A DNA stretch of 64,000 bases, from assembly GCA_902522015.1 (NCBI GenBank), contig CABYTX010000001.1:5003-69002 (forward strand), given 5' to 3'. The position numbers were made by a program, and so were the translations under genes. A model generated the notes under the pieces. That model worked only from the letters and a program-made list of their open reading frames with translations. It was not told the DNA's origin and made no database searches. Positions 19,265 to 59,379 of this stretch are shown here, in pieces. This stretch comes from an uncultured Alphaproteobacteria bacterium. GTDB taxonomy: Bacteria; Pseudomonadota; Alphaproteobacteria; HIMB59; GCA-002718135. Numbering within the stretch: position 1 is the stretch's first letter; each line of letters starts with the position of its first letter.

Positions 19265-19329
19265 TTTTTAAATTAACTTTTGACTATTTGTTTTCATGCA
19301 GTTATTCAAGCTTCATTACAAAATATATT

Positions 19330-20418: not shown

Positions 20419-20537
20419 ATCTATTTTTTTATCGGTATTTGGCCAAAATTTTTTATTTTTACCTCTTTTTTTTCATTTAACGACATGTTATTACACCACC
20501 ATTACGGACATAATCTTAAGATTAAATAATTAAAAAT

Positions 20538-20543
20538 AGGAGG
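20538..20543 (+). promoter_or_regulatory. Consensus Shine-Dalgarno AGGAGG, 6 nt upstream of the binding-protein start
   Basis: The sequence 'aataGGAGGatatatATG' is read directly. Most other genes in the window lack such a site. Confidence 0.7.
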
Positions 20544-20549
20544 ATATAT

Positions 20550-21653: not shown

Positions 21654-21685
21654 GCTTGATAAATTAAATTTTGTAATTTAATCTA

Positions 21686-21714
21686 AAGGCGAGAATTATC
21701 TCGCCTTTTTTATT
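21686..21714 (+). terminator. Rho-independent terminator / attenuator between the SBP and permease genes
   Basis: 'aaGGCGAGAattaTCTCGCCtttttta ttt'. The GC core stem is 7 bp (9 bp with A-U pairs), the loop is 4 nt, and a T-run follows. Confidence 0.8.
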
Positions 21715-22991
21715 TGGAGGTTACTATTTCTACTGCTGAATTATTAACTACGGACGGAGTTCCACTCAAACAAAGTTTGCGAAAAGCTGAAAGAAGAAAT
21801 AAACTAAGAGCTTTTCTTTTAGTCTTTCCTTTACTTTTTTTTATTGTCGTTACTTTTGTAATGCCAATTGGTGACATGCTTCTTAGAAGTATTGATGACA
21901 GTCAAATTAATTCAGTTTTTCCTAATACTTTTAAAGAATACAAAAACTGGGATAAAGCAGCTGACGAACTACCTCCAGAAGAAGTATATAAAAGTCTTTT
22001 TTTTGAATTAGCCAATGGAGATAAGAGACAAATAGGTAAAGCTCTAACAAGAATGAATTATGCTAAATCTGGTTGGAAAAGTTTAATTAAAAAAACCACT
22101 AGAGAAATAAAAAAAATTGTAAAAAAAGGTGAAGAACCAGTTTCATATAAAGAGACATTTATCAAAATAAATAAGTTCTGGGGCGATCCAACTTACTGGT
22201 ACTCTTTTAACCAAATGGTAAACGATAGATCATCAATTTATTATTGGAATGCAGTTGATAGAACATATAGCGAAGATGGTGATGTTGTCTTACAGGATGA
22301 AAGAAGACGAATGTATATTAAAACTTGGTTTAGAACTTTCAAAGTAAGTGTTTACGTAACAATTTTTTGTTTAATACTTGGTTTTCCTGTTGCACATTTG
22401 TTAGCAAATTTACCTTTAAGATATAGTAATCTTTTAATGATTTTTGTTTTACTTCCGTTTTGGACTTCATTACTTGTTAGGACAACAGCATGGATTGTAA
22501 TGCTTCAACAAAATGGAGTTATAAACGGAATATTAGTTTGGTTAGGTATTGTAAGTGATGAGGGTCGATTACAAATGGTTTATAATGAAACAGGTACTTT
22601 AATAGCTATGACTCAAATTTTATTACCTTTTATGATTTTACCCTTGTACAGTGTGATGAGAGTAATTCCAAAAAGTCATATGAGAGCAGCTCAAAACTTA
22701 GGCGCTAAACCTGCAATGGCATTTTGGCGTGTTTATTTACCACAAACTATTCCAGGTATAAGCGCTGGCGGTTTATTAGTATTTGTTCTTGCGATTGGAT
22801 ATTTTATCACCCCTGAATTAGTTGGTGGAAAAGATGGTAAATTAATTGGAAGTTGGATAGCTTACCATTTAAAAACTACTCTCAATTGGGGATTATGCGC
22901 TGCTCTAGGAGGTATACTTCTAGGGATAATGTTAATTTTGTACTGGCTGTACAACAAAATTGTTGGCATAGACAACATAAAGTTAGGATAA
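21714..22991 (+). CDS. ABC transporter permease, PotB-like, with a long extra loop after TM1
   Basis: 425 aa with the C-terminal permease core and EAA-type region 'AAQNLGAKPAMAFWRVYLP'. The TTG start overlaps the terminator T-run, so the start is uncertain. Confidence 0.8.
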   Translation: MEVTISTAELLTTDGVPLKQSLRKAERRNKLRAFLLVFPLLFFIVVTFVMPIGDMLLRSIDDSQINSVFPNTFKEYKNWDKAADELPPEEVYKSLFFELANGDKRQIGKALTRMNYAKSGWKSLIKKTTREIKKIVKKGEEPVSYKETFIKINKFWGDPTYWYSFNQMVNDRSSIYYWNAVDRTYSEDGDVVLQDERRRMYIKTWFRTFKVSVYVTIFCLILGFPVAHLLANLPLRYSNLLMIFVLLPFWTSLLVRTTAWIVMLQQNGVINGILVWLGIVSDEGRLQMVYNETGTLIAMTQILLPFMILPLYSVMRVIPKSHMRAAQNLGAKPAMAFWRVYLPQTIPGISAGGLLVFVLAIGYFITPELVGGKDGKLIGSWIAYHLKTTLNWGLCAALGGILLGIMLILYWLYNKIVGIDNIKLG

Positions 22992-22994
22992 CAA

Positions 22995-23891
22995 ATGGCT
23001 CTTCCAAGTTATGCAACTCCTATACAAAGAACTTATTACTATTTTTATTTATTCTTTTGTGCGGTAGTGTTCTTCTTTCTAATTGCACCTCTATTCGCAA
23101 TCATTCCAATATCTTTTAGTGTTTCACCTTTTATGGTTTTTACTGAAGGAATGTTAGCTTGGCCACCTGATCCAGAAGCTTGGTCATTAAGGTGGTACAA
23201 AAATATGATTGGCGATTGTAGTGCTGATGTTGTTTCTTCTACAGTTCCATGTTCAACAAAGTGGATGGTTGGTACTGTAAATAGTTTTTATATTGGTATT
23301 ATAGCAACTGTTATTGCTACAGCTTTAGGAACACTGGCAGCTCTTGGTTTAAGTAGACCTCATATGCCATATAAAGGTTTGATAATGGCTATATTAATTT
23401 CACCAATGATTGTTCCACTAATTATAACAGCTGCAGGAATGTTCTTCTTCTATGCAAGAATAAATCTTGTTTATACTTTCACAGGTGTAATTCTTGCACA
23501 TGTTGCTCTTGCTACACCTTTTGTAGTAATCACTGTAACGGCAACATTAGTTGGTTTTGATATGAATATGGTAAAAGCAGCTCAAAGCTTAGGTGCTAAA
23601 CCAATGAGAACATTTTTTAAAGTCATTATGCCATTAATTTTACCAGGTATTATATCAGGAGCTTTATTTGCTTTTATTACATCGTTTGATGAAGTTGTTA
23701 TAGTTATGTTTATGGCTAGTATTGATCAGTTAACTATTCCAAAACAAATGTGGGCTGGAATACGACAAGAAATTAGCCCTGTTATTTTATGTATGGCTAC
23801 TTGTTTAGTGCTTCTTTCTATATTTTTATTAACTACAGTTGAGCTACTTAGAAGAAGATCTGAAAAACTCAGAGGTATTAAACCTCGATAG
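22995..23891 (+). CDS. ABC transporter permease, PotC-like
   Basis: 298 aa, six hydrophobic spans, EAA region 'AAQSLGAKPMRTFFKVIMP'. Confidence 0.85.
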   Translation: MALPSYATPIQRTYYYFYLFFCAVVFFFLIAPLFAIIPISFSVSPFMVFTEGMLAWPPDPEAWSLRWYKNMIGDCSADVVSSTVPCSTKWMVGTVNSFYIGIIATVIATALGTLAALGLSRPHMPYKGLIMAILISPMIVPLIITAAGMFFFYARINLVYTFTGVILAHVALATPFVVITVTATLVGFDMNMVKAAQSLGAKPMRTFFKVIMPLILPGIISGALFAFITSFDEVVIVMFMASIDQLTIPKQMWAGIRQEISPVILCMATCLVLLSIFLLTTVELLRRRSEKLRGIKPR

Positions 23892-35963: not shown

Positions 35964-37040
35964 ATGGGAAAAAAAATAATTTCTATTAATGAAGGAAAAT
36001 TATCAGAGTTTAAACTTCATAGCATTTGGCTTCGTGAAAGATTAAATGGGAGTGAATTTGTAGACCAAAATAATTTACAACGTTTATATGAACCAAGCCT
36101 TTTAGATGATAATCTATTTATAAATTCTCATAATGTTAACGAAAATATATTAAATGTTGAATTTAGTGATGGAGCAAAAGGATCTTTTAATATTGATGAT
36201 CTTTATAATGAAATCAATAATATTGATGTCATACCTGAAAAAAAAATATGGAATGTCAGTGAACAAAATTTGGAAATTTTTGATAATAATAAAATCTTTG
36301 AGAATAAAAAGGAACTTATCAATATGCTTAAAGTATTTTATCAATATGGTTATGTAATAATTGAAAATACAAAAGCAGAAGAAGATGAAGTTATAAATTT
36401 TGCTGAAAAATTAGGCCCAGTTCGAGCAACAAATTTTGGAAAATTATTTAACGTTGTCTCAAAACCAAATCCAAATGATCTTGCCTATACTGCATTAGAG
36501 TTAACTTCGCATTCTGATAACCCATATAGAAAGCCTGTTCCTGGAATTCAATTACTTCATTGTATTGCTAATGAATCTACAGGAGGAGACTCAAGTTTAG
36601 TTGATGGTTTTAGTGTTGCAAATTTTTTAAAACATAACCAACCTGAATTTTATAAAGTATTAACTGAAACTAATGTTACTTTTAAATTTACAGATATTGA
36701 TACTATTTTAGTTGATGAAGCAAAATTAATTGAACTAGACCATAATAATAACTTTAGACAAATACGATTTAGTGGAAGACTTGATTATGTTCCATTATTA
36801 GAGGAAAACAATCTTGATCTCTTTTATAATGCTAGAAAATATATGTTCAAACTTTGTAACTCTGATGATTTCAAAATTAAATTTAGATTATCTAGAGGAA
36901 TGATTGCAATGTTTGATAACCTGAGATTATTACATGGAAGAACTAAATTTGATCCAAATACTGGTTTTAGACATCTACAAGGATGTTATATTGATCATGA
37001 TGTCACTGAGGGTAAGCTTAGAAGGTTACTAAAACCCTAA
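35964..37040 (+). CDS. Fe(II)/2-oxoglutarate dioxygenase, gamma-butyrobetaine hydroxylase / TauD family
   Basis: 358 aa with a DUF971-like N-terminus ('FKLHSIWLRERL'), the facial triad candidates 'HSDNPY' and 'LLHGRTKF', and 'PGIQLLHC'. Confidence 0.7.
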   Translation: MGKKIISINEGKLSEFKLHSIWLRERLNGSEFVDQNNLQRLYEPSLLDDNLFINSHNVNENILNVEFSDGAKGSFNIDDLYNEINNIDVIPEKKIWNVSEQNLEIFDNNKIFENKKELINMLKVFYQYGYVIIENTKAEEDEVINFAEKLGPVRATNFGKLFNVVSKPNPNDLAYTALELTSHSDNPYRKPVPGIQLLHCIANESTGGDSSLVDGFSVANFLKHNQPEFYKVLTETNVTFKFTDIDTILVDEAKLIELDHNNNFRQIRFSGRLDYVPLLEENNLDLFYNARKYMFKLCNSDDFKIKFRLSRGMIAMFDNLRLLHGRTKFDPNTGFRHLQGCYIDHDVTEGKLRRLLKP

Positions 37041-38104
37041 TTGACTTCGAAGATCTTTTCAGCAGGATAAAAATTTAATATTTTACTATACCAATTACTA
37101 TAATTATTTCTTTCAATTAATGAAACTGTAAAACCACCAAATCCACCACCAGTCAATCTGGCGCCTAGAGCACCACATTCAACCGATCTCTGAACAATTA
37201 AATCAACATCTAAAGTAGATGCTTCAAAATCTTTAGAATATGATACGTGACTTTCATTCATTAATTTTCCAAACTCCTGAATATTATTTTCTATTAAATT
37301 TTTTTTTGCATTAATCACTCTATCATTTTCAAAAACTACATGCTTTGCTCTTTTTGCTATAGTATTATTGTCAAATTTATTTGTTTGAAAATTTTCTTTT
37401 TTAACTTCACCTAAATATTCTACACCAAGTTTTTTTTCAGCCTCTTCGAGTTCAGCAAATCTTTCATTATAAGAGCTATCTCTTAAATTTCGTTGTACTT
37501 CAGAGTCAATCAAACAAAATTTCCAATTTTCTGGAAAATTAATAAGTTCGTATTCTAAATTCTTACAATTCATAAAAAATGCTTTGCCATGAATACCAAT
37601 AGAAGAGACCATTTGATCCATTATTCCACCAGAAACACCTATATAGTTGAATTCTACTTTCTTTGCTAATTTTGCAATTTCTGGATCTTTGATTTTTGTT
37701 TCAAAAAAAGTATTAAGTGCTTTTAGTGTAGCAACACACAATGCTGAAGATGATGAAATACCTCTTTCTAAAGGTATATCAGATGAAATAAAAATGTTTA
37801 AAAATCTAGATGAAATCTTATTTTCATCAAAAAAAATATGCAAACAACCTTTTATATAATCAACCCACTCATTGTTTATTGATTTTTTGAAATCATTGAA
37901 TATTTTTTTTTCTTTAAAATGTTGAGAATAAACTGTGAATTCATTAGAATTATTTTGAGATATCTCAATGGTATTTTTAAAAGATAAAAGTGTAGGCATG
38001 ACATATCCACCAGTATAATCGGTATGTTCACCAATTAAATTTACTCTTGCATGAGCACTTCCCTTTACTTCTGCGTCTATATTAAATATATCTTTAAAAC
38101 TCAT
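37037..38104 (-). CDS. galK: Galactokinase-type GHMP kinase
   Basis: 355 aa with the galactokinase signature 'RVNLIGEHTDYTGG', the GHMP motif 'PLERGISSSSA', and 'GARLTGGGFGG'. Confidence 0.8.
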   Translation of the reverse strand: MSFKDIFNIDAEVKGSAHARVNLIGEHTDYTGGYVMPTLLSFKNTIEISQNNSNEFTVYSQHFKEKKIFNDFKKSINNEWVDYIKGCLHIFFDENKISSRFLNIFISSDIPLERGISSSSALCVATLKALNTFFETKIKDPEIAKLAKKVEFNYIGVSGGIMDQMVSSIGIHGKAFFMNCKNLEYELINFPENWKFCLIDSEVQRNLRDSSYNERFAELEEAEKKLGVEYLGEVKKENFQTNKFDNNTIAKRAKHVVFENDRVINAKKNLIENNIQEFGKLMNESHVSYSKDFEASTLDVDLIVQRSVECGALGARLTGGGFGGFTVSLIERNNYSNWYSKILNFYPAEKIFEVN

Positions 38105-38117
38105 ATAATTACTACTT

Positions 38118-39980
38118 ATGACTAATCAAATTAATATATCTTTTACAAATGAAAATAAATTAAAAATTATTCTTGATGATAAATTAGTAGTTTCAAATTT
38201 GAAACTGTGTTTCTCATTAGTTTATTCAATAAAATCTATATCAGGAGGTGAAATAACAAAGCAAATTGGACGTTATTACGAGTTATCTATAAAAAAAAAT
38301 ACAATTTTATTAGATTTACAAATTCCTAAAATTGGTAACTTCAACCTTTCGTGTGGTCCGGAAGGTATTTTCATTATTGATACATTAAACAATAGTAAAT
38401 TAAATATAAATGTTTCAGATTTGATATTTGAAAAACCAATTAAAAAGAAAACTTATGAAGATTTAAAAACAAAAAATTTTATACCTATTATTCCTGAGCC
38501 AGAAAAAATTTATTTACAAAATGAATTTGTAAATATTGAAAATAAAACATTTAATCTAAATACGGAAATTGAAATTATTTCTAATTTGCAAAATATTATT
38601 TACAAATTGGATATTAATTTTACTTCTGAAAAAGGATTTCCAATTTTTTTTAAAAAAGATGATCAGTTATTAAACGATCAATATTTTATGCAGATAACAA
38701 AAGATAATATTGAGATTAAATACAATACTTATGGTGGAAAGCTATATGGTCTTATATCTTTAGTTCATTTAATTGATTATTATCAAACAAAGCTTCCAAT
38801 TTGTACAATTCACGATAATCCAAAATATCAATGGAGAGGAATGCATCTCGATTGTGCAAGACAATTCTATACTATTAATGAAATCAAACGTTTATTTAAT
38901 TACATGGCATTATTTAAGCTTAATAGATTTCATTGGCATTTAACAGATAACGAAGCGTGGAGAATTGAAATTAGAAAATATCCAGATCTAGCATTAAATG
39001 GGGGATACAGAGGGTATAATTTTAAAATACCACCATTGTACGGAAGTGGTTATGATAAATACGGCGGATATTACTCACAGGAAGATATCAAAGATTTAAT
39101 TATATATGCAAAAAAATTAAATATCGAAATTATGCCTGAAATTGATTTACCAGCACATTCTTGGGCATTACTAGAAATTATGCCAGAACTTAGAGAACAG
39201 TCTTCAAATATAGTTAGTGAAGATGTTGGTTCGTATAAGAATAATACAATAAATCCTTCCTTAGAAAAAACTATAACTTTTTTAAAAGATATGTTGAATG
39301 AAGTAAGTGATATCTTCTCATATGATGTAATTCATGTTGGCGTTGATGAAAGACCAAGTAATGCCTGGGAAGGTTCTCCAGCAATTATCGAGTTTATGAA
39401 AAAAAATAATATTAAATCACAAGAGGAATATCAAGATTACTATATGAATTTTTTAATAGATTTTCTAAAATCAAAAAATAAAAGAACAGCTGCATGGAAT
39501 GAGGCGGCAGTGTCTCCTCATATCGATCATGGTGTGGGTGGAAGTGCTGGAAAAATTGATAAATCATGTTTGATCTTTTCATGGGAGCATTCAGATGTTG
39601 CAAAAGAAACTACAAATAAGGGATTTGAAACAATACTTTGTCCCGGTCAAAAAACATATTTTGATATGGCTTATAATAATTCAACTGAAGAAAGAGGTAT
39701 TTGTTGGGCTGCAACTATAGAAGTAAAAGATATTTATGAATGGGACCCAATAAAAGATTTAAATAAATCAGAATTGATAAAAGGGTTACAAGGTCAACTG
39801 TGGTCAGAGACAATTACAGATAAAAAATTTTTTGATCAAATGATCAACCCAAGATTAGCAACTTTATCAGAAGTTGCATGGAAAGGAAAAATTTCAAGAA
39901 AATGGATAGAATTTCGTTCAGCACTTCTACATTCTATGGATTTTTTAAAAAAATTAGGCTGGCGATATCACAATTTTTAA
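38118..39980 (+). CDS. GH20 beta-N-acetylhexosaminidase, no signal peptide
   Basis: 620 aa with 'NRFHWHLTDNEAWR' and the catalytic 'IHVGVDE'. The N-terminus is not signal-like. Confidence 0.85.
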   Translation: MTNQINISFTNENKLKIILDDKLVVSNLKLCFSLVYSIKSISGGEITKQIGRYYELSIKKNTILLDLQIPKIGNFNLSCGPEGIFIIDTLNNSKLNINVSDLIFEKPIKKKTYEDLKTKNFIPIIPEPEKIYLQNEFVNIENKTFNLNTEIEIISNLQNIIYKLDINFTSEKGFPIFFKKDDQLLNDQYFMQITKDNIEIKYNTYGGKLYGLISLVHLIDYYQTKLPICTIHDNPKYQWRGMHLDCARQFYTINEIKRLFNYMALFKLNRFHWHLTDNEAWRIEIRKYPDLALNGGYRGYNFKIPPLYGSGYDKYGGYYSQEDIKDLIIYAKKLNIEIMPEIDLPAHSWALLEIMPELREQSSNIVSEDVGSYKNNTINPSLEKTITFLKDMLNEVSDIFSYDVIHVGVDERPSNAWEGSPAIIEFMKKNNIKSQEEYQDYYMNFLIDFLKSKNKRTAAWNEAAVSPHIDHGVGGSAGKIDKSCLIFSWEHSDVAKETTNKGFETILCPGQKTYFDMAYNNSTEERGICWAATIEVKDIYEWDPIKDLNKSELIKGLQGQLWSETITDKKFFDQMINPRLATLSEVAWKGKISRKWIEFRSALLHSMDFLKKLGWRYHNF

Positions 39981-39998
39981 TGTTAAAGTAAAATAAAT

Positions 39999-41144
39999 AT
40001 GAAAATAGGGGCAGTCGGTTTTGGGAGTAGGACAGCAGGTGTTTATAATGAATTTTCAAAAGTTAATCCAAATTTTGAAATGGTTGCTTATGTAGATCCT
40101 CAGCCAATAGGTAAAGATTTTGCTGAGAAAAATAATTTTTTTCCAAATAAATCATATTCAAGTTTAAACGAAATGTTGGATCGAGAGAAACTAGATATGT
40201 TAATGATTGGGTCCCCCAATCATTTACATTTAGATCATATTAAGCTTGGATTAAGAGCAGGATTACAAATATTTGCTGAGAAACCTTTAGTAATAAGCGA
40301 ACAAGAAACTTTTGAGTTAGCAAAATTAATAAAAGAATATGGCAAAGAAAGAATTATTGTTGGCTTAGTTTTAAGATATTCACAGCAAGCAAGATCTGTG
40401 AGAAAATTATTAGATCAAAATGCTATTGGAAATATAATATCGATTGAAGCTTCAGAACATATCGTACCTTCGCACGGTGCTTTTTTTATGAGAAACTGGA
40501 GAAGAAAACAAAAATATTCTGGAGGCTTTATGCTGGAAAAATGTTGTCATGACATTGACTTTTATTCAATGATTACGAAGAGCAGACCTATTAAAGTTGC
40601 TAGTTTTGGTTCAAGAAGATCTTTTATACCCGAAAATCTTCCAGAGGGTTCTCATGAACAATATACAAAAGACAGATTAAAAGGTTGGGAGTCAAAATCA
40701 AATGTTTTTGATAGTGATGCTGATATTGTCGATCATCAAGTAGCAATAATAGAATATGCAAATAAAGCAGTACTATCTTTTCATACTAATATGAAAGTTC
40801 CAGACGAATTTCGAAGATTTGCAGTCATAGGATCTGCGGGAATGATTGAGGGAGATTTTGTTAAAGGATTTATGAAAGCTCATGATGAAAATAATAATGT
40901 ACTTATTGATGAAGATTATGGAGCAGCTTTTGGAAAAGAAATTAAAGGTCATTATGGCGCAGATAGCATGATGGCTCAAGATATTAACAATTATTTATTA
41001 AAAAATAATAAAGAATTACCAGTTGGTGTAATAGAATGTATGGAGGCAGGAATTGTTGCTATGAAAATTGATGAAGCTAGAAATACTGGTAAAGTAATTG
41101 ACTTAACAAGCACTTGGGATAAATTCGACTCACTATTAAATTAG
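39999..41144 (+). CDS. Gfo/Idh/MocA family oxidoreductase
   Basis: 381 aa with 'GAVGFGSRTAG' and 'FAEKPL'. Confidence 0.8.
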   Translation: MKIGAVGFGSRTAGVYNEFSKVNPNFEMVAYVDPQPIGKDFAEKNNFFPNKSYSSLNEMLDREKLDMLMIGSPNHLHLDHIKLGLRAGLQIFAEKPLVISEQETFELAKLIKEYGKERIIVGLVLRYSQQARSVRKLLDQNAIGNIISIEASEHIVPSHGAFFMRNWRRKQKYSGGFMLEKCCHDIDFYSMITKSRPIKVASFGSRRSFIPENLPEGSHEQYTKDRLKGWESKSNVFDSDADIVDHQVAIIEYANKAVLSFHTNMKVPDEFRRFAVIGSAGMIEGDFVKGFMKAHDENNNVLIDEDYGAAFGKEIKGHYGADSMMAQDINNYLLKNNKELPVGVIECMEAGIVAMKIDEARNTGKVIDLTSTWDKFDSLLN

Positions 41145-41149
41145 TAATT

Positions 41150-42049
41150 ATGAATCAAAAATTAAAATCATATACCGCCCAAACATATATAGCATATGCA
41201 CTAATTGCTCCTGCTGCTATTTATATAATTCTTATTGTTGCTTGGCCATTATTAGAAACAATTAGATTATCTTTTACAAATTCTAGTTTAGCAGGAGAAG
41301 ATTATGTTGGTTTTGAAAATTATCAAAAAATGTTTTCTAGTAAAAAATTTAATGGAATAGTGACCAGAACATTTGTTTGGATGTTTTTTTCAGTCTCTTT
41401 AAAACTTATCATTGGTTTAATTGGAGCTGTTTTACTTAATGCTAATTTAAAAGGAAGATCAATTTTCAGAGTGCTTGTAATGCCTCCATGGGTAGTTCCA
41501 ATTGCAATTGGTATGCTTGGCTGGTTATGGTTATATAACGGGTATTTTGGAATTATCGCAGGTGTAGGTATGCGAACTGGTATTTTGGACGGTCCTTTTG
41601 GATTTCTTGCTTACAAACAAAGTGCCTTTATTTCTACAATCATTGCCGATGTTTGGGTTGGAACACCAATGGTAACCGTTTTCTTTCTAGCTGCAATGCA
41701 GGGTGTGCCAAGAGATTTATATGAAGCTGCTTATTGTGATGGCGCTTCAAGATGGGATAGATTTTTTAAAATCACATTACCTCAAATCACTCCTGTCATT
41801 ATTACAATGTCATTACTATCTGCTATTTGGACATTCAACTCATTTGAAATAATTTGGATATTGACTGAAGGTGGGCCAAGAGGTTCAACAACTACATTAA
41901 TTATCGACACCTATAAACAAGCATTAGGCAATTATAAATTTGGAAGAGGTGCTGCTAGAGCCGTAGTCGTAATGATTTTACTAATGTTATTTGCAGGATT
42001 TTACTTAGCTTTACTTGCTAGAATTAATAAGAAAATTTCTCATGAATAA
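41150..42049 (+). CDS. CUT1 sugar ABC transporter permease (MalF/UgpA-type)
   Basis: 299 aa, six TM segments, EAA region 'EAAYCDGASRWDRFFKITLP'. Confidence 0.85.
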   Translation: MNQKLKSYTAQTYIAYALIAPAAIYIILIVAWPLLETIRLSFTNSSLAGEDYVGFENYQKMFSSKKFNGIVTRTFVWMFFSVSLKLIIGLIGAVLLNANLKGRSIFRVLVMPPWVVPIAIGMLGWLWLYNGYFGIIAGVGMRTGILDGPFGFLAYKQSAFISTIIADVWVGTPMVTVFFLAAMQGVPRDLYEAAYCDGASRWDRFFKITLPQITPVIITMSLLSAIWTFNSFEIIWILTEGGPRGSTTTLIIDTYKQALGNYKFGRGAARAVVVMILLMLFAGFYLALLARINKKISHE

Positions 42050-42881
42050 ATATAATCCTTTTGAAAAAATATTGATCTATTTTGGCATCTTTGTCTTCAT
42101 GACTTTTATTCTTTTGCCTTTTATTGAAATGTTTTATGCATCGCTTCGTCCCTTAGATCATTTATTTAGATCTCCATACCAATTTTATTCAGATGATTTA
42201 TCTTTTTGGGCTTATCAAGAAATGTGGAATACGGTACCAATGCTTGGAAGATATATCTTTAATAGTTTTTTTCTGGCTTCCTGCGTTGCTATACTAACTC
42301 TTATATTTGTTATTCCTGCAGCCTACGCATACGCACGTTTTAAATTTCCAGCTAAGAATACGAGCTTATACATACTCTTAGCAATTAATATGTTTTCAGG
42401 AGCAGTAATTTTAATACCTTTATACAAATTGTTAAGGACTTTAGGTTTATTAAATAGTTATCAATCTATGATAATTCCTGGTGTTGCTTTTTTAATTCCA
42501 ACTGCAATTTGGCTGCTAAAGTCTTACTTTGAAAAAATACCAATAGATTTAGAAGAGGCAGCTTTTGTAGATGGTGCTTCAAGAGTACAAATACTCAGAC
42601 ATATCATTGCACCTCTTAGTACCCCTGGTCTGGTAGTTGTTGGGATATACGCTTTTATTGGATCTTATGCTCAACAATTCTTATTTGCGATTACATTTAA
42701 TCAGAAAAAAGAATATATGCCAATTCCAACAGGGTTATATGAATTTATAGGATATCAAAGCGTTAAATGGAATGAAATGATGGCAGCAGCCTTAGTAGGG
42801 ATGTTACCAGTTTTATTATTATTTGTATTTTTACAAAAGTATATTGTAGAGGGGCTTACTGCTGGTGCGGTAAAAAACTAA
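42042..42881 (+). CDS. CUT1 sugar ABC transporter permease (MalG/UgpE-type), paralogue 1
   Basis: 279 aa from the ATG at 42042 ('MNKYNPFEK', 8-nt overlap with the upstream stop). The ORF-track TTG at 42015 is less likely. EAA region 'EAAFVDGASRVQILRHIIAP'. Confidence 0.85.
   Translation: MNKYNPFEKILIYFGIFVFMTFILLPFIEMFYASLRPLDHLFRSPYQFYSDDLSFWAYQEMWNTVPMLGRYIFNSFFLASCVAILTLIFVIPAAYAYARFKFPAKNTSLYILLAINMFSGAVILIPLYKLLRTLGLLNSYQSMIIPGVAFLIPTAIWLLKSYFEKIPIDLEEAAFVDGASRVQILRHIIAPLSTPGLVVVGIYAFIGSYAQQFLFAITFNQKKEYMPIPTGLYEFIGYQSVKWNEMMAAALVGMLPVLLLFVFLQKYIVEGLTAGAVKN
42480..42721. repeat. Near-identical tract shared by the tandem permease paralogues (copy 1)
   Basis: 242 nt matching 43321-43562 with 3 mismatches (42575, 42602, 42605), all synonymous. 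The 60-nt flanks that I aligned by hand show 75-76 % identity. Confidence 0.9.
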
Positions 42882-42882
42882 A

Positions 42883-43722
42883 TTGGATAAATATAATATA
42901 TACGAAAAGATATTATTATATTCAGGAATACTAGTCTTTATGATTTTTATTCTTTTGCCTTTTGTCGAAATGTTTTATGCATCACTTCGACCGTTAGATC
43001 ATTTATTTAGATCTCCATATCAATTTTATTCAGATGATTTATCTTTTTGGGCCTATAGAGAAATGTGGAATACAGTACCAATGCTTCCACGATATATTTT
43101 TAACAGTTTTTTTCTTGCCTCAGTAACTTCTATTATTACTTTGCTTTTTGTAATTCCTGCAGCTTACTCTTATGCACGTTTTAAATTTCCTTTTAAAAAT
43201 TCTTCACTCTATATTTTATTAGCAATTAATATGTTTTCAGGAGCAGTTTTATTAATTCCTCTCTATAAAGTATTAAGAACATTTGGTTTGCTAAATACAT
43301 ATCAAGCTATGATTGTTCCCGGTGTTGCTTTTTTAATTCCAACTGCAATTTGGCTGCTAAAGTCTTACTTTGAAAAAATACCAATAGATTTAGAAGAGGC
43401 AGCTTTTGTAGATGGGGCTTCAAGAGTACAAATACTCAGACACATAATTGCACCTCTTAGTACCCCTGGTCTGGTAGTTGTTGGGATATACGCTTTTATT
43501 GGATCTTATGCTCAACAATTCTTATTTGCGATTACATTTAATCAGAAAAAAGAATATATGCCTATCCCTTCAGGGCTGTATGAATTTATTGGTTACACAA
43601 CAGTCAAATGGAATGAAATGATGGCAGCCTCTCTTGTTGGGATTGCCCCTGTCTTAATAATTTTCCTTTTTCTACAGAAATATATTGTTGCTGGACTCAC
43701 TTCTGGGGCAGTAAAAAACTAG
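42883..43722 (+). CDS. CUT1 sugar ABC transporter permease (MalG/UgpE-type), paralogue 2
   Basis: 279 aa with a TTG start 1 nt after the paralogue 1 stop. It is collinear with paralogue 1 over its full length, with roughly 85-90 % aa identity by eye. Confidence 0.85.
   Translation: MDKYNIYEKILLYSGILVFMIFILLPFVEMFYASLRPLDHLFRSPYQFYSDDLSFWAYREMWNTVPMLPRYIFNSFFLASVTSIITLLFVIPAAYSYARFKFPFKNSSLYILLAINMFSGAVLLIPLYKVLRTFGLLNTYQAMIVPGVAFLIPTAIWLLKSYFEKIPIDLEEAAFVDGASRVQILRHIIAPLSTPGLVVVGIYAFIGSYAQQFLFAITFNQKKEYMPIPSGLYEFIGYTTVKWNEMMAASLVGIAPVLIIFLFLQKYIVAGLTSGAVKN
43321..43562. repeat. Near-identical tract shared by the tandem permease paralogues (copy 2)
   Basis: Partner of 42480-42721 at an offset of 841 nt. 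Confidence 0.9.
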
Positions 43723-43788
43723 AAAAATACCCAAAAACTAACTTGCTTCATAGAGCCAGTTAATGTTATCTCTTTTTTATATTTAAAT

Positions 43789-43793
43789 GGAGG
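43789..43793 (+). promoter_or_regulatory. Shine-Dalgarno GGAGG, 4 nt upstream of the binding-protein start
   Basis: 'aaatGGAGGaattATG' read directly. Confidence 0.65.
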
Positions 43794-43797
43794 AATT

Positions 43798-45009
43798 ATG
43801 AATTTCAAAAAACTATCTTCATTTCTTACAATAGCTATACTTTCACTAGTTGGTTTTAAAACTTATGCTGCTGAAGTACACGGAGTATTTTGTGGCGGTG
43901 AGCTTCGACCTAATTATGTTGAAATAGCTGATAAGTACATGGAAGACAATCCTGGAGTTACTGTAACTCTAGAGGCTGTTCCTTGGGGAACATGTCAGGA
44001 CAAAGTAATCAATCTTGCTATTGCAGGTGATCCTGTTGCATTTTCATATGTTGGATCAAGAACTCTAAAAGGTCTTGCAGAAAACGGACATATTTTAGAA
44101 ACAAATATACCTGCTTCTCAAAAAGCAATGTATCAACCAGGTATCCTAAACACAGTTACACACATGGGTAAAACTTGGGGTTTCCCTCATGCGTTTTCAA
44201 CTAAAGCACTTTTCATGAATTGTGGTCTTTTAGAAAAAGCAGGTGTTGCATGTGAAGGTCCTCAAACTTGGGATGAATTATATTCAATGGCTGAAGCTGT
44301 AACAAAAAATGTTGATGGAGCAGCAGGAATTGGACTAGCTGGTAAAGATTTTGATAATACTATGCACCAATTCTTAAACTACCTATACAGTAATGGAGGA
44401 CAAGTTATTGATCCAATGTCAAACGAAATAACTTTGAATTCATCTAATACTGTTGAAACATTAGAATTTTATGGAAAGTTAGCAAACGTTGCTCAGGAAG
44501 GTCCTTTAGCTTGGGAGAGATCTCAGTTAACAGAACTATTTAATGATGAAAAAATTGCTATGTATATTAATGGACCTTGGGGTAGAGGTCAGCATAAGGA
44601 AGGCCTAGATGTTAAAACAGTTAGAATTCCTGCTGGACCACAAGGAAATCAAGGTACTCTTTTAATCACTGATAGTGTTGCAGTTTTCTCAAACACAGGT
44701 GTTGAAAAAGAAGCAATGGAATTAGCTAGCATAATCACATCAGGTGACTCTCAATACAGTCTTGATACTGATTGGGGTCTAACACCAATTATGCAATATC
44801 CTCAAATTGGAAATGAAGCTCCATACAATGAAGATTATTGGATGATGTTTATTGATGCGATTGGCGATGGTGGACCAGAGCCACTATTTGTAGACTACAA
44901 AGCTTTTCAAACTGTTATGAACTCTATGATCCAAGGGGCAATTCTTGGTGAAGGAGATGCTGCGGATTTAGTAGCTGAAGCAGCTGAAGAGTTAGAAGAA
45001 TACAAATAA
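43798..45009 (+). CDS. Periplasmic sugar-binding protein (SBP family 1, CUT1)
   Basis: 403 aa with signal peptide 'MNFKKLSSFLTIAILSLVGFKTYA'. Acidic, Lys-poor composition. Follows three permease genes. Confidence 0.85.
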   Translation: MNFKKLSSFLTIAILSLVGFKTYAAEVHGVFCGGELRPNYVEIADKYMEDNPGVTVTLEAVPWGTCQDKVINLAIAGDPVAFSYVGSRTLKGLAENGHILETNIPASQKAMYQPGILNTVTHMGKTWGFPHAFSTKALFMNCGLLEKAGVACEGPQTWDELYSMAEAVTKNVDGAAGIGLAGKDFDNTMHQFLNYLYSNGGQVIDPMSNEITLNSSNTVETLEFYGKLANVAQEGPLAWERSQLTELFNDEKIAMYINGPWGRGQHKEGLDVKTVRIPAGPQGNQGTLLITDSVAVFSNTGVEKEAMELASIITSGDSQYSLDTDWGLTPIMQYPQIGNEAPYNEDYWMMFIDAIGDGGPEPLFVDYKAFQTVMNSMIQGAILGEGDAADLVAEAAEELEEYK

Positions 45010-45020
45010 TTACATTATTT

Positions 45021-45045
45021 TGCTAGGGCAATATTTGCCCTAGCA
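45021..45045 (+). terminator. Perfect 11-bp hairpin after the SBP gene (no U-run); possible terminator or mRNA-stabilising element
   Basis: 'TGCTAGGGCAAtatTTGCCCTAGCA'. No T-tract follows, so an intrinsic-terminator call is weak. Confidence 0.4.
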
Positions 45046-45062
45046 TCTAATATAAAATCTAA

Positions 45063-45791
45063 ATGAGTAAATTAACAAGATCTTATTCCTCAAAAATTAA
45101 TTCAATTTTAAAGAAGATATTAAAAGAAGAAGAAAAAAAATTTTTACAGTGTGCTAAGTTAATTAGTAAATCATATAAAAAGGGTGGGCAGTTATATATT
45201 TTTGGAACTGGACACTCTAGATTACTCGGAGAAGAATCATTTCATAGAGCAGGTGGTTTTGCTGCCGCATGTCCAATAAGAGATGATGATCTCAGTTTTA
45301 AAAAAGGAGCAAGAAAGGCCACTGCTTTAGAAAGAACTCCAAATATTGCAAAAAAAGCTCTAGCTAAATATAAAATTACTAGCAAAGATATATTGATGAT
45401 TGTATCTAATTCAGGTGTCAATCACGCTCCTGTTGAAGCAGCTTTGATTGCTAAGAAAAAGAAAATAAAAACTATTTCACTAACATCTGTAAAATACTCA
45501 AAACAAGCTCCTCTATCTAAATTGAATAAAAGATTATTTGAAATAACGGATATATTCATTGATAATAAGATTCCACCTGGTGATGCAATTATAAATATTA
45601 AAGATAACATGGTTGGACCAGCTTCAACAATTACAGGATCTTTTATTTTAAATTCAATTTTAATTGAAGTTGCAAATATCTTAAAAAATGAAAAATTGTT
45701 TCCATTCTATATCAGTGTAAATATGCCAAATGCTAAAAGAAATAATGACAAATTAGAGAAAAAATTTAGTAAGATTAATCCTCATTTATAA
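45063..45791 (+). CDS. SIS (sugar isomerase) domain protein, UPF0309-like
   Basis: 242 aa with the SIS-type motif 'LYIFGTGHS' and 'IVSNSGVN'. No HTH segment is visible. Confidence 0.65.
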   Translation: MSKLTRSYSSKINSILKKILKEEEKKFLQCAKLISKSYKKGGQLYIFGTGHSRLLGEESFHRAGGFAAACPIRDDDLSFKKGARKATALERTPNIAKKALAKYKITSKDILMIVSNSGVNHAPVEAALIAKKKKIKTISLTSVKYSKQAPLSKLNKRLFEITDIFIDNKIPPGDAIINIKDNMVGPASTITGSFILNSILIEVANILKNEKLFPFYISVNMPNAKRNNDKLEKKFSKINPHL

Positions 45792-54632: not shown

Positions 54633-55712
54633 TTATTTAAATGCTTGTCCTGAACTATCAAATAACTGGCATCTCCCAGCAGGGAAACCAACTTTTACCG
54701 TATCACCAACTTTTATTTCTGAATGTCCTTCAGTTTCAGCAACTAATGGCTCTCCATCTTTTTCAAGGTATAGGTAAGTAACGTCACCAAGTTTTTCAAC
54801 AACAAATACTTTACTTTCCCAAGATCCATCTGCATCACCATTTACGACTAAGTGTTCAGGTCTAATACCTAGAGTTACTGAATCACCCTCTGAGGAGGAT
54901 GCTGACATCTTAGAGACTGATATTTTTGACATTCCCATAATATCAACTTCTGTAGCATCAGAACTTTTGCTTAATATTTTACTTGAAATAAAGTTCATTT
55001 TTGGTGATCCAATAAATCCACCTACGAACATATTATTTGGTCTATCATAAAGTTCTAATGGGGATCCTTTTTGTGAAACGATACCTGTATCAAGTACAAC
55101 AATATCATCAGCTAATGTCATAGCTTCTGTCTGATCGTGTGTAACGTAGATCATTGTTGCCTCTAGTTCATTATGCAGTTTTGCTAATTCAACTCTCATT
55201 TGAACCCTTAATGCAGCATCAAGGTTTGAAAGCGGTTCATCAAATAAGAAAACTTTTGGCTTTCTAGTAATTGCTCTTCCAATAGCAACACGCTGTCTTT
55301 GACCACCTGAAAGTTGTTTTGGTTTTCTTTGAAGATAATCTTCAATCTGAAGAATTCTTGCTGCCTCGTTAACTCTTTCATTAATTTCATCTTTTGATCT
55401 TTTTTCTAATTTCAAACCAAAAGCCATATTATCAAATACAGTCATATGAGGGTATAGTGCATATGATTGAAACACCATTGCAATATTTCTTTGCTTTGGC
55501 GGTAAATCATTAACTACTTGACCATCAATTGAAATTGTACCTGAATTAATATCTTCAAGTCCCGCTATCATTCTTAACATAGTTGATTTACCACAACCAC
55601 TTGGACCAACTAGAACTGTGAATGATTGACTTTTTATATCTAGAGATACGTCTTTAATTACATGGACGTCTCCAAAATATTTATTAACAGTATTTATATT
55701 TATATCTGCCAC
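54633..55712 (-). CDS. CUT1 ABC transporter ATP-binding protein (UgpC/MalK-like)
   Basis: Walker A 'GPSGCGKST', signature 'LSGGQRQRVAIGRA', Walker B 'VFLFDEPLSNLD'. The GTG at 55712 ('VADININTVNKYFG') sits 5 nt after AAGGAGG and is preferred over the TTG at 55763. Confidence 0.85.
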   Translation of the reverse strand: MADININTVNKYFGDVHVIKDVSLDIKSQSFTVLVGPSGCGKSTMLRMIAGLEDINSGTISIDGQVVNDLPPKQRNIAMVFQSYALYPHMTVFDNMAFGLKLEKRSKDEINERVNEAARILQIEDYLQRKPKQLSGGQRQRVAIGRAITRKPKVFLFDEPLSNLDAALRVQMRVELAKLHNELEATMIYVTHDQTEAMTLADDIVVLDTGIVSQKGSPLELYDRPNNMFVGGFIGSPKMNFISSKILSKSSDATEVDIMGMSKISVSKMSASSSEGDSVTLGIRPEHLVVNGDADGSWESKVFVVEKLGDVTYLYLEKDGEPLVAETEGHSEIKVGDTVKVGFPAGRCQLFDSSGQAFK

Positions 55713-55717
55713 TTCAT

Positions 55718-55724
55718 CCTCCTT
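55718..55724 (-). promoter_or_regulatory. Shine-Dalgarno AAGGAGG for the ATPase gene
   Basis: The minus strand reads 'AAGGAGGatgaaGTG', read directly. Confidence 0.6.
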
Positions 55725-55814
55725 TGAGCGATCTTTCAAGTGTATGAATACATCATCATACAAATATACTATTATTTAACGATAATTTAGATAAAAAATC
55801 AATAGTTTTTGATA

Positions 55815-56954
55815 TTAACCCTTAACTGATCCTGCCACTAATCCTCTTATGAAATACCTTTGTAGAGCAAAAAAGATAAATAAGGGAACTGTCATTGATA
55901 CAAATGCTCCAGTAGTTAATATTTCCCAATTTTCTCCCCTTGATCCTAGTAATTCTTTTAATTTTGCGGTTAATATTATTTCACTTGGAACTTGATCTAA
56001 GAATACTAAACCAACTAATAAATCATTCCAACACCATAAAAATTGTAAAATAAATATTGAGGCAAAAGCTGGTATAGATAGAGGAATAATTATTCGTAAA
56101 AAAATATCATAATGAGAAGCACCGTCAACTTTAGCAGCTTCCATCATTTCATTAGGTAAGCTTTTTAAAAAGTTTCTTAAAAGAAAAGTAGTTGATGCTA
56201 ATCCAAAACCAGTATGCGCCATCCAAACACCAGGATAAGATTTAGCCGCAACTCCAAATAATGCACCAAAATCATTATAGATTGTTAGTATAGGTATAAG
56301 GGACATTTGAAGAGGAACAACAAGAGACGCAATTATTATTGCTAATAAAGTATCTCTTCCATAAAATTTCATCCAAGTTAAGGAATATGCAAAGAAAGAG
56401 CATATTATTAAAGGAATTAGTGTTGAAGGTAATGCTACTGCCATTGTATTAACAAAAGCTCTGCCAATTCCTTCTTTGAATAAAACTTCTCTATAATTTT
56501 CAAAAGTAAATGCAGGAGGGCTTAATGATGTAGTAAATAATCTTTTACCTTTTTTCTTTTTAAATTCTGTTTTAGATCTCCATTCATAATTTCCATCTTC
56601 ATCAAGAAGCACTTCACTTTCATCTTTAAAAATTGCGACATCACCAATATTAAATTCATTAATTTTCTTTGAAGTAATTCCAAAACTTTCTATTTTTTTT
56701 CCTGAATTATCTTCAAATAACTTTCCTTTAATTTTGAAATAACCATCTTCTTCAATTTGGTTTTCCATTCCTGACATTCTATAAATTTCATTTACTTCTG
56801 TAGTAGTTAAGGAAGTCCACCATCCACTTATAGCTAATAAATCTTTATCTCTTAAAGAGCTAATAAACAGACCAAATGTAGGAATAATCCATATAATAAC
56901 AAAGAAGAGGAGTAATAGTTGAGATAATAAAGATGATATTGAAAATTTCTTCAT
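55815..56954 (-). CDS. CUT1 ABC transporter permease (UgpE/MalG-type) with a ~100-aa loop after TM1
   Basis: 379 aa with EAA region 'EAAKVDGASHYDIFLRIIIP'. Confidence 0.8.
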   Translation of the reverse strand: MKKFSISSLLSQLLLLFFVIIWIIPTFGLFISSLRDKDLLAISGWWTSLTTTEVNEIYRMSGMENQIEEDGYFKIKGKLFEDNSGKKIESFGITSKKINEFNIGDVAIFKDESEVLLDEDGNYEWRSKTEFKKKKGKRLFTTSLSPPAFTFENYREVLFKEGIGRAFVNTMAVALPSTLIPLIICSFFAYSLTWMKFYGRDTLLAIIIASLVVPLQMSLIPILTIYNDFGALFGVAAKSYPGVWMAHTGFGLASTTFLLRNFLKSLPNEMMEAAKVDGASHYDIFLRIIIPLSIPAFASIFILQFLWCWNDLLVGLVFLDQVPSEIILTAKLKELLGSRGENWEILTTGAFVSMTVPLFIFFALQRYFIRGLVAGSVKG

Positions 56955-57937
56955 TATATTTTTTGTTCCTGTCTATGTTTGTATAAATTCCATGCTAAGA
57001 TTGGTATTACACCAATCATAATAACAATTGCTAAAACACTTCCTCTTCCCGAGTCACCACCACCTCTAAACATCCAGTCGTACATTAAGTTCGCTAAGAC
57101 TCCGGTTTGCCATTCCCCATTAGTCATGGCAAAAATAATATCAAATATTCTTAAAACAATTATTGTAATTAAGGTCCAAATCACAAGTATCGTTTGTTCT
57201 AAATAAGGAATTATAATTGAAAAAAATATTTTTAATTCACTAGCCCCGTCAATTCTTGCTGCTTCAAGCATTTCTTTAGGTATGCTTCTTAATGCAGCAC
57301 TAAAAATAACTAAAGCTAATCCAGTTTGTATCCAAATCATAATAGCCATCAAAAAGAAATTGTTCCACATAGGTATTGTTAACCATGCTTGTGGCTCATA
57401 ACCAAGGGAAACAATTATTGCATTAAGTAGTCCAATTTGTGTATTCTCAGGTCCTCTATATTCATAAATAAATTTCCAAATTACACCAGCTCCTACAAAT
57501 GATATTGCCATAGGCATAAATATTATAGATTTTGCAATTGAACCCCACCAAATTCTATCAGCTAAGTTAGCAATTACTAATCCAAAAAAAGTGCTTAATG
57601 TTGGGACTACAAGTAACCATACTAAATTATTTAATATACTTCTTCTAAATTCAGGATCATTAATTGCCCATTTGTAATTGTATAGTCCCACAAATTCTCT
57701 TCCAAATTTATCATAAAAGCTAAGTCTAATAGTTTCAAACACAGGATATAAAATAAAAATAAATAAAACAATAAAAGCAGGCGTTATAAAAACTATAACT
57801 CTTATAGAATTTTCAAAATTATATCTCTTCAGCGTTTTATTGCCATAAATGTCTAAAATATAATTTGAGATATGAAAGTAGGCTATAAAAAATAACACTC
57901 CTAAAAAAACAATGAATACTAAATTCAGGATAGTCAT
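56954..57937 (-). CDS. CUT1 ABC transporter permease (UgpA/MalF-type)
   Basis: 327 aa with EAA region 'EAARIDGASELKIFFSIIIP'. 1-nt overlap (TAATG) with the downstream permease gene. Confidence 0.8.
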   Translation of the reverse strand: MTILNLVFIVFLGVLFFIAYFHISNYILDIYGNKTLKRYNFENSIRVIVFITPAFIVLFIFILYPVFETIRLSFYDKFGREFVGLYNYKWAINDPEFRRSILNNLVWLLVVPTLSTFFGLVIANLADRIWWGSIAKSIIFMPMAISFVGAGVIWKFIYEYRGPENTQIGLLNAIIVSLGYEPQAWLTIPMWNNFFLMAIMIWIQTGLALVIFSAALRSIPKEMLEAARIDGASELKIFFSIIIPYLEQTILVIWTLITIIVLRIFDIIFAMTNGEWQTGVLANLMYDWMFRGGGDSGRGSVLAIVIMIGVIPILAWNLYKHRQEQKI

Positions 57938-57953
57938 TAATGAGTAAATATAT

Positions 57954-57989
57954 AAAAAAAACAGGCGAACAAGTTAATTGTTCGCCTGT
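57954..57989 (-). terminator. Rho-independent terminator / attenuator between the SBP and permease genes
   Basis: The minus strand reads 'ACAGGCGAACAAttaacTTGTTCGCCTGTttttttt'. Perfect 12-bp stem, 5-nt loop, and a T-run of 7 or more. Confidence 0.85.
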
Positions 57990-58003
57990 AATTAATTGAA
58001 AAG

Positions 58004-59314
58004 TTACTTAATTGCGTCCCAACTATCTTGGATCGCATCTGCTACATCTTGGGCAGATTTTCCGTTAGTATAGTCAACCATACCAGTCCAGAAAGTTCCA
58101 GCACCAATAGCACCAGGCATTAAGTCTGACGCATCAAATCTAAATGTTGTTGCGCCTGTTAGAATTTCACCTAGTTTTCTAAATGTATCACTAGCATATT
58201 TGCTTCCATCAACGCCTTTATGAGGTGTTAGGAAGCCACCTTTAGCCATCCAATATTCATGAGCTTCAGGATGCATTAAGAATTTAATGAACTCTATAGT
58301 TGCTTGGTTATCATTAGTAGCAGCTACTAGTGTACCAGCTCCAAGTACAGGAGTTCCTAAATCTTTAGTTGCATATGCAGGGAAATAAAAGAAATCATAA
58401 TCAACACCAGCTTCTACACCTTCAGGGAAGAATGCAGGAATAAAACTAGCTTGTCTATGCATCATACACTCTGCAGGTGAAGTGAAAAGTCCGTTTGGAG
58501 CATCTCTAAAATCAGTAGTTGCTACTGCTTTAGAACCACCATTCACAAACTTGTCATTTAATGCAAAAGTTCCAAAGAAATTCATTGCTTCAATAACTCT
58601 TGGGTCATTAAAAGGCATTTCATTAGATACCCACATGTCATAAACATCAGGTGTATGCGTTCTTAGCATGATATCTTCCATCCAGTCAGTTGCAGGCCAA
58701 CCTGTAGCTGCACCTGAGCCTAGACCAATACACCACGGAGTATTTCCATCAGATGCCATTTGTCTTGTTAGTGCAATTAGTTCTTCCATAGTCCCTGGAA
58801 CTTCATAACCATTATCTTCAAAGTTATCTGGTGAATACCAAACTAAACTTTTTACGTTTGTTCTAAAGAAAATTGCATTAAACTGATCATTACCGTTTTC
58901 ATCTGCATAAGTTGAAAGATCTACCCATGATTGACCAGCAGCATAGTTATCTAAAACCATTTGCTTAATATCATTTCCAAGAGGAACTAATCCTCCCATT
59001 GCTGCAGCATTTGCAGCAAGTCCTGGTTGTGGAAATACAACTAGATCCGCTGCACTTCCAGCTTTTAAATCGATCATAACTTGTTGTTCAAAACTATCTG
59101 AACCACCATATTCAAATGTAGCTCCTGTAGCTTTTTCAAATATAGCACCAACTTCTCTCATTGTTTCTTGTTCAGGTGATAACCAAGGACCAAACATAAC
59201 TACCTTTTGTCCACTTAGATCTGGACCAGTATATTTGTGACCTCCAGCATAAGCTGAAAAACTTAGAAATAATGAAGAAACTAATACTATTAGACTTTTA
59301 ATTGAGTATTTCAT
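58004..59314 (-). CDS. Periplasmic substrate-binding protein (SBP family 1; UgpB-like)
   Basis: 437 aa from the ATG at 59314 ('MKYSIKSLIVLVSSLFLSFSAYA' signal peptide), which is preceded by AGGAGG. The ORF-track TTG at 59365 would run into the promoter repeats. Confidence 0.85.
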   Translation of the reverse strand: MKYSIKSLIVLVSSLFLSFSAYAGGHKYTGPDLSGQKVVMFGPWLSPEQETMREVGAIFEKATGATFEYGGSDSFEQQVMIDLKAGSAADLVVFPQPGLAANAAAMGGLVPLGNDIKQMVLDNYAAGQSWVDLSTYADENGNDQFNAIFFRTNVKSLVWYSPDNFEDNGYEVPGTMEELIALTRQMASDGNTPWCIGLGSGAATGWPATDWMEDIMLRTHTPDVYDMWVSNEMPFNDPRVIEAMNFFGTFALNDKFVNGGSKAVATTDFRDAPNGLFTSPAECMMHRQASFIPAFFPEGVEAGVDYDFFYFPAYATKDLGTPVLGAGTLVAATNDNQATIEFIKFLMHPEAHEYWMAKGGFLTPHKGVDGSKYASDTFRKLGEILTGATTFRFDASDLMPGAIGAGTFWTGMVDYTNGKSAQDVADAIQDSWDAIK

Positions 59315-59318
59315 TAAT

Positions 59319-59324
59319 CCTCCT
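59319..59324 (-). promoter_or_regulatory. Consensus Shine-Dalgarno AGGAGG, 4 nt upstream of the SBP start
   Basis: The minus strand reads 'ttAGGAGGattaATG', read directly. Confidence 0.7.
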
Positions 59325-59355
59325 AATTTATAAAGAACAAATATCCCATCATCGC

Positions 59356-59379
59356 TTATTGTCAATTTATAATAATTTT
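59356..59379 (-). repeat. Proximal copy of a 24-nt direct repeat containing TTGACA, upstream of the SBP gene
   Basis: Plus strand 'TTAtTGTCAATTTAtAATAATTTT'. The minus strand carries 'AAAATTATTATAAATTGACA'. Confidence 0.7.

Follow-up and report, generated by a model that had tools for sequence, protein, structure and literature searches.

Gene conversion between two tandem MalG-type permease genes very probably explains the near-identical tract that they share in a 64,000-nt stretch of DNA (the window) from an uncultured alphaproteobacterium of the HIMB59 lineage (assembly GCA_902522015.1, contig CABYTX010000001.1, positions 5,003 to 69,002 of the forward strand). The genes, G1 (42042–42881, ATG start) and G2 (42883–43722, TTG start), are each 840 nt and 279 codons long and lie on the plus strand; the open reading frames, Pfam and NCBIfam agree with an earlier note on this DNA that they are collinear, 1 nt apart, and follow a MalF-type permease gene. 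The tract spans plus-strand positions 42480–42721 in G1 (gene positions 439–680, counted from the start of each 840-nt gene) and 43321–43562 in G2, the latter arm belonging to the donor copy in the latest event.

The two genes align without gaps at an offset of 841 nt, with 703 of 840 nucleotides identical (83.7%), and their proteins are identical at 244 of 280 aligned positions (87%, stop counted), but this identity is a mosaic. Within the tract 239 of 242 nucleotides are identical and the three differences are all synonymous, as had been reported, whereas the 60-nt flanks fall to 44/60 on the left (73%) and 46/60 on the right (77%), close to the 75–76% first estimated by hand. A 5' segment (42121–42240) that had been put at 90–93% has 110 of 120 positions identical (91.7%), and is part of a second, 5' zone of concerted evolution at gene positions 61–240 (42102–42281 in G1, plus strand; 42943–43122 in G2), where the window copies show about 92% identity and several other genomes have no differences at all over positions 61–180. 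In an alignment to MalG and to SugB of LpqY-SugABC, the tract corresponds to codons 147–227 and encodes transmembrane helix 4 (TM4), the EAA loop and TM5, in keeping with the earlier description of a block coding for the EAA loop and neighboring helices. Synonymous divergence (NG86 dS) is far from uniform along the genes, at 0.075 in the tract versus 1.23 at gene positions 241–438 and a saturated 2.87 at 682–837, and the high values in the flanks indicate that the duplication is old. The mosaic is statistically significant: a Sawyer-type permutation test on 438 polymorphic sites returned P≤2e-4, the limit of its 5000 permutations, for all 13 pairs tested (the window pair and 12 others), and a scan statistic for the whole tract gave P=5e-5.

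The same locus is present in many relatives, designated here by L-numbers, which comprise GORG-Tropics single-cell genomes and metagenome-assembled genomes labelled HIMB59, MarineAlpha5 or Pelagibacteraceae. One of them, L024, is the single-cell genome AG-891-K05, which has been placed in family GCA002718135 of the order HIMB59 (PMC10734472); the lineage, also named AEGEAN-169, has streamlined genomes of low G+C content with many sugar ABC transporters (PMC10308909). Both genes are complete in 50 other assemblies, single-cell genomes included, all 50 of which have the arrangement 840 + 1 + 840 nt with an ATG start for G1, and no stops or frameshifts are found in these 100 genes. The two copies are present as well on L089, a Sanger-era GOS contig on which G1 is cut short by the end of the contig, and they have the same variants there at gene positions 438–475; the duplication is thus confirmed as real and not an artefact of one record.

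Comparison of the 50 two-copy genomes shows the tract blocks evolving in concert and the flanks evolving by copy. Within a genome the paralogues are separated by distances of 0.080 at positions 439–566 and 0.041 at 625–680, lower than the orthologue distances for the same blocks (0.138 and 0.091), and in 40–41 of the 50 genomes the paralogue lies nearer than the median orthologue does. In the flanks (positions 1–60, 241–438 and 681–840), this is so in only 1–11 of 50 genomes; the paralogue distance there is 0.24–0.28 whichever genomes are compared, and 96–100% of the flank sequences have a nearest neighbor of their own copy type. In the window's clade, most genomes show few or no differences between the copies at positions 439–560 and 625–680, and the two copies of one genome have strain-specific single-nucleotide polymorphisms in common there.

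The latest event in the window's lineage is much shorter than the tract. The earlier note had read the tract as a recent and sharply bounded conversion of 242 nt; conversion stands, but only a patch in G1 at gene positions 567–624 (42608–42665, plus strand) is recent, and the tract is a composite of this patch and two long-standing homogenised blocks. Five relatives whose loci are 97.4–99% identical to that of the window (L002, L011, L013, L018 and L020) retain an unconverted G1 allele, and unconverted relatives differ from the window in the patch at 17–18 sites (16 in L028), nearly all of them third codon positions. The G2 genes of the same five relatives have exactly the patch sequence found in both window copies, and the window's G2 matches them; its G1 has no G1-specific allele at 567–624. 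Because the relatives' G2 equals the window patch and their G1 is distinct, G2 was the donor and G1 the recipient. The window's G1 keeps G1-type bases at gene positions 561 and 564, which sets the left edge at 565–567 (42606–42608); the right edge may lie anywhere in gene positions 624–680 (42665–42721), so that the converted length is 58–116 nt. Across the patch the window's G1 is identical to its own G2, including a T at position 567 that is absent from most other G2 alleles.

Other lineages have tracts of different extent. Gene positions 435–686 are homogenised in L034, 472–705 in L045 and 241–300 in L023 and L031, and in two genomes the direction was from G1 to G2: L053, where the copies are identical over positions 8–708, and L043 (positions 58–360). 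Two further tracts are each common to an entire clade and have picked up differences since they formed, one at positions 301–360 in the clade of L045–L054 and one at 721–780 in the clade of L035–L043, L040 excepted. These differing tracts indicate that conversion has been recurrent, patchy and bidirectional. There are also apparent by-products of exchange. The single-copy loci L044, L058 and L069 are chimeras of a G1 5' part and a G2 3' part, nested among two-copy relatives, each with one switch point (at 580–710, 475–546 and about 60–205, respectively) in or overlapping the homogenised zones; and a JGI metagenome contig (L091, 3583–6105) has three tandem copies, consisting of G1, a chimera of G2 (1–138) and G1 (176–840), and G2. 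The single-copy chimeras and the triplet match the two reciprocal products expected of unequal crossing-over.

Three further loci have irregular copies. The reading frame of G1 in L064 (5223–6065) is shifted near codon 256 by one inserted nucleotide, through either an error in single-cell sequencing or decay of the copy. The G1-like gene of L070 (5050–5840) enters unrelated sequence after about codon 263. In L008 (3124–3812) the 3' part of G2, which follows a gap of 100 Ns, matches the window's G1 at 93% identity rather than the usual 84% or so, which reflects either a misjoined scaffold or a longer conversion from G1 into G2.

We propose the following history. A MalG-type gene was duplicated in tandem long ago in an amino-sugar ABC-importer operon of the marine HIMB59/AEGEAN-169 alphaproteobacteria, and both copies are kept by selection. 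Homologous recombination between them, presumably of a RecA type, repeatedly transfers short stretches in either direction and without reciprocity; the latest such event in the window's lineage, taking 58–116 nt from G2 into G1, filled the sole stretch of divergence left between two blocks that most relatives had already homogenised, which completed the 242-nt tract. The sharp outer edges would then be the points where identity, and hence the efficiency of recombination, falls, so that conversion would reinforce itself in the better conserved parts of the gene. The edges are consistent with such identity-dependent recombination and would require no fixed hotspot.

Several observations weigh against this history, and most of them concern assembly, as every related record except two GOS contigs, L089 and L094, probably comes from short-read assembly. 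Identical copies, chimeric single copies or extra copies can arise in such assemblies through collapsed bulges, repeat resolution or mis-traversed loops, and an assembler that skipped or re-traversed the repeat loop would yield the same chimeras and triplet as unequal crossing-over. The window-specific junction, where G1-type bases at 561 and 564 are followed by the G2-type patch, is in no other fetched locus, and a junction 38-mer has no match among JGI metagenome contigs. All 12 JGI/GOS contigs carry the unconverted G1 patch (one only partly), and the fully converted state was seen only in the window and four ENA scaffolds, a fifth (L004) keeping two patch differences; these ENA scaffolds were retrieved by exact identity of the G1 protein and are therefore a biased sample. 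An artefact of assembly or polishing would mean that the copies truly differ in the patch and that a short-read assembler wrote one consensus into both. Typical de Bruijn assemblers use k-mers no longer than the 122- and 56-nt blocks of identity beside the patch, and assemblers do struggle at this locus, as seen in the contigs of L006 and L007, which end in the 5' repeat zone about 138 nt into G2, and in the 100-N gaps within G2 of scaffolds L001 and L008. We nonetheless consider such an artefact unlikely. In the window the copies still differ at positions 534, 561 and 564, of which 564 is just 3 nt away from the patch, and a collapsed bubble would be expected to erase these differences too; the clade-shared partial tracts with their later substitutions are not explicable as assembly noise; L012, L021 and L093 switch between alleles within the patch, which calls for real recombinant molecules; and most single-cell assemblies keep the two alleles apart. 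The converted haplotype looks like a minority variant, and we are largely confident that it is real in the source genome.

Two other explanations accept the sequence as it stands. An ectopic recombination of a G2 fragment from another cell of the population into G1 would look identical to conversion within the genome, which is a further point against the latter, and recombination in these populations is heavy: the whole transporter module is exchanged between divergent backbones (see below), and replacement islands in HIMB59 are exchanged by homologous recombination (PMC10734472). The match of the window's G1 patch to its own G2, down to the uncommon T at 567, favors a donor in the same genome, and such a donor is always present just 841 nt away; an origin in another cell is therefore quite improbable. 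The remaining explanation is purifying selection at the nucleotide level, for instance through an RNA or regulatory element lying within the gene or very strict codon constraint, keeping the tract identical without any recombination. The tract does encode the most conserved part of the protein, including the EAA loop, and dN within it is 0. However, divergence between orthologues is no slower in the tract than elsewhere in the gene (0.138 versus 0.12–0.14), which excludes nucleotide-level constraint as the cause of the identity and bears out the earlier argument that purifying selection alone is insufficient; relatives 99% identical to the window have the 17–18 mostly synonymous patch differences; and an Rfam search of 41000–45100 at E≤1 matched no family, so no known RNA element accounts for the conservation. 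We regard this explanation as having almost no chance of being correct, and gene conversion between G1 and G2 as the best account of the tract.

G1 and G2 belong to a transporter of the CUT1 type. Upstream is a MalF/UgpA-type permease gene (41150–42049, plus strand, 299 aa; Pfam BPD_transp_1, with UgpA and MalF as best NCBIfam matches), whose stop codon overlaps the G1 start by 8 nt, and downstream is the gene of the substrate-binding protein (SBP; 43798–45009, plus strand; Pfam SBP_bac_1 and SBP_bac_8). The two MalG-type genes match Pfam PF00528 (E=4.5e-13 and 7.5e-13) and the NCBIfam MalG model (E=3.6e-35 and 5.2e-33), the latter with scores under the equivalog cut-off, so that the assignment is at the family level only; their best matches among solved structures are SugB (E=1e-33) and MalG (E=1.5e-27). 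The EAA-X3-G loop reads EEAAFVDG at residues 171–178 of both copies and aligns to the EAA region of SugB.

The genes around the transporter identify the cluster as an amino-sugar utilisation locus. A minus-strand gene for a GHMP-type galactokinase-like protein is followed by those for a GH20 hexosaminidase, a GFO/IDH/MocA oxidoreductase, the MalF-type permease, G1, G2 and the SBP, and 3' of the SBP gene are those for a SIS protein, NagA, a second SIS protein and a GMC oxidoreductase. The transporter cluster has no ATPase gene, as the earlier note stated, but its claim that there is no cognate ATPase does not extend beyond the cluster: about 11 kb downstream, a neighboring CUT1 system includes a MalK-type ABC ATPase gene (54633–55763, minus strand; Pfam ABC_tran, OB_MalK and TOBE_2, with Walker A and LSGGQ motifs), a candidate for the shared ATPase of the G1/G2 importer. 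CUT1 systems commonly share one ATPase among several of them, and its absence from the cluster is therefore unremarkable. A scan of 37900–45200 for promoters and terminators gave no excess of sites over shuffled sequence, and showed no internal signal separating the two MalG-type genes.

The window encodes two further complete ABC importers. One is at 19288–23891 (plus strand), with an ATPase gene (19288–20418, plus strand) whose product has a TOBE_2 domain, an SBP and two permeases, and the other, at 54633–59365 (minus strand), includes the MalK-type ATPase with an SBP and two permeases. Adjoining the sugar locus is a gene for a TauD-family dioxygenase (35964–37040), for which the closest NCBIfam models are 2-trimethylaminoethylphosphonate dioxygenase (TmpA) and gamma-butyrobetaine dioxygenase, both under cut-off.

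The transporter module, consisting of the 3' part of the GFO/IDH/MocA gene, the MalF-type gene, G1, G2 and the SBP gene (about 40800–45000), has a history of its own in the loci compared (L073, L034 and L045). Relative to L073, where just one MalG-type gene is present, DNA identity is 90–98% in the flanking enzyme genes and only 65–78% in the module, whereas relative to the two-copy locus L034 the module is 84–97% identical and the flanks mostly 54–79%. These opposite patterns indicate that deeply divergent versions of the transporter occupy the same site in close relatives, and the module appears to behave like a replacement island exchanged by homologous recombination. A midpoint-rooted tree of MalF and SBP was dropped as a species tree for this reason. 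The pst replacement islands of HIMB59 (PMC10734472) likewise have a module history decoupled from that of their flanks; unlike them, the module here is a sugar importer within a catabolic locus, and the likeness concerns the module and not the conversion tract.

Both copies are under strong purifying selection, with median dN/dS over 43 orthologue pairs of 0.032 for G1 and 0.030 for G2. The TTG start of G2 stands 1 nt past the G1 stop in 50 of 50 related genomes, and codons 2–20 evolve as coding sequence (dN 0.20, dS 0.81). In this first part of G2 (42883–42942) public gene calls miss the TTG and begin at an internal ATG, so that the protein is annotated as 260 aa and TM1 is cut; an exact look-up of the full G2 protein with M as first residue returned no record. 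The position of the TTG suggests translational coupling of G2 to G1, perhaps at a lower level of expression. A frameshift or read-through fusion of G1 and G2, suggested by the A-rich end of G1, was rejected, as G2 is in the +1 frame, a second stop follows within three codons of the G1 stop, and nothing favors a +1 slip.

The two proteins have fixed or nearly fixed differences at eight positions (I12L, G69P, VA82-83TS, S139T, QS239-240TT and A274S, G1 residue first), and those at 239–240 (QS in G1, TT in G2) and 274 (A in G1, S in G2) are fixed in 50 of 50 genomes. Residues 239–240 align with S236–Q237 of SugB in a HMMER alignment, and residue 274 is in the C-terminal tail. In SugB, S236–Q237 form the tip of the P3 'scoop loop', which enters the sugar pocket of the binding protein, and the C-terminal tail inserts into the ATPase dimer interface (PMC7608808). 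The fixed differences in the predicted scoop loop and tail would thus be compatible with altered docking or substrate release. A tentative reading of these sequence differences, which we think rather unlikely, is that G1 and G2 are alternative subunits that share the MalF-type partner, the ATPase and the SBP and differ in docking or substrate release. If so, conversion may keep TM4, the EAA loop and TM5 interchangeable and selection may protect the divergent 3' end, although this too we hold to be rather unlikely. The last 150 nt of the gene are homogenised in only 0–1 of 50 genomes per 30-nt window, but low identity, together with the lack of homology past the repeat to anchor an exchange, could equally explain this.

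Conversion between bacterial paralogues is well known, with tufA/tufB in Salmonella and the rRNA operons as the textbook cases. It is also reported for the duplicated PE_PGRS gene pair of tubercle bacilli (PMC1762029). G1 and G2 share with all of these the non-reciprocal exchange, the mosaic identity, the homogenised synonymous sites and the clustering by genome; they differ in being tandem, 1 nt apart in one operon, and in encoding a membrane subunit of an ABC importer, and their tracts are short (tens to hundreds of nucleotides), run in both directions and occur across about 50 uncultured single-cell genomes. We therefore see here a clear natural example of a well-known process and not a new kind of system. 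Among transporters, MalFGK2-MalE and LpqY-SugABC likewise have MalF-type and MalG-type permease genes, an SBP gene and an EAA loop, but the window cluster has two MalG-type genes and no ATPase gene, and unlike the single MalG or SugB its two MalG-type proteins differ from each other at the predicted tip of the scoop loop (QS versus TT). The malG1 and malG2 genes of the Thermotogales were considered as a precedent and set aside, as the two sit in separate operons. A keyword search, which is weak evidence of absence, turned up no literature account of a CUT1 operon with two adjacent MalG-type genes, of conversion between such genes or, more widely, of gene conversion in ABC permease genes.

The locus is a practical hazard, since it breaks or confuses short-read assemblies and gene callers shorten G2 to 260 aa. 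It also provides a natural data set on the lengths, direction and boundaries of conversion tracts, and on by-products such as the chimeric single copies and the three-copy array, from about 50 genomes of an abundant, mostly uncultured and streamlined marine bacterium in which duplicated genes are rare. If the reading of G1 and G2 as alternative subunits is correct, a CUT1 importer with three permease genes would have been retained in a streamlined genome, and a functional difference between the two MalG-type subunits would make this an unusual route to diversifying an ABC importer.

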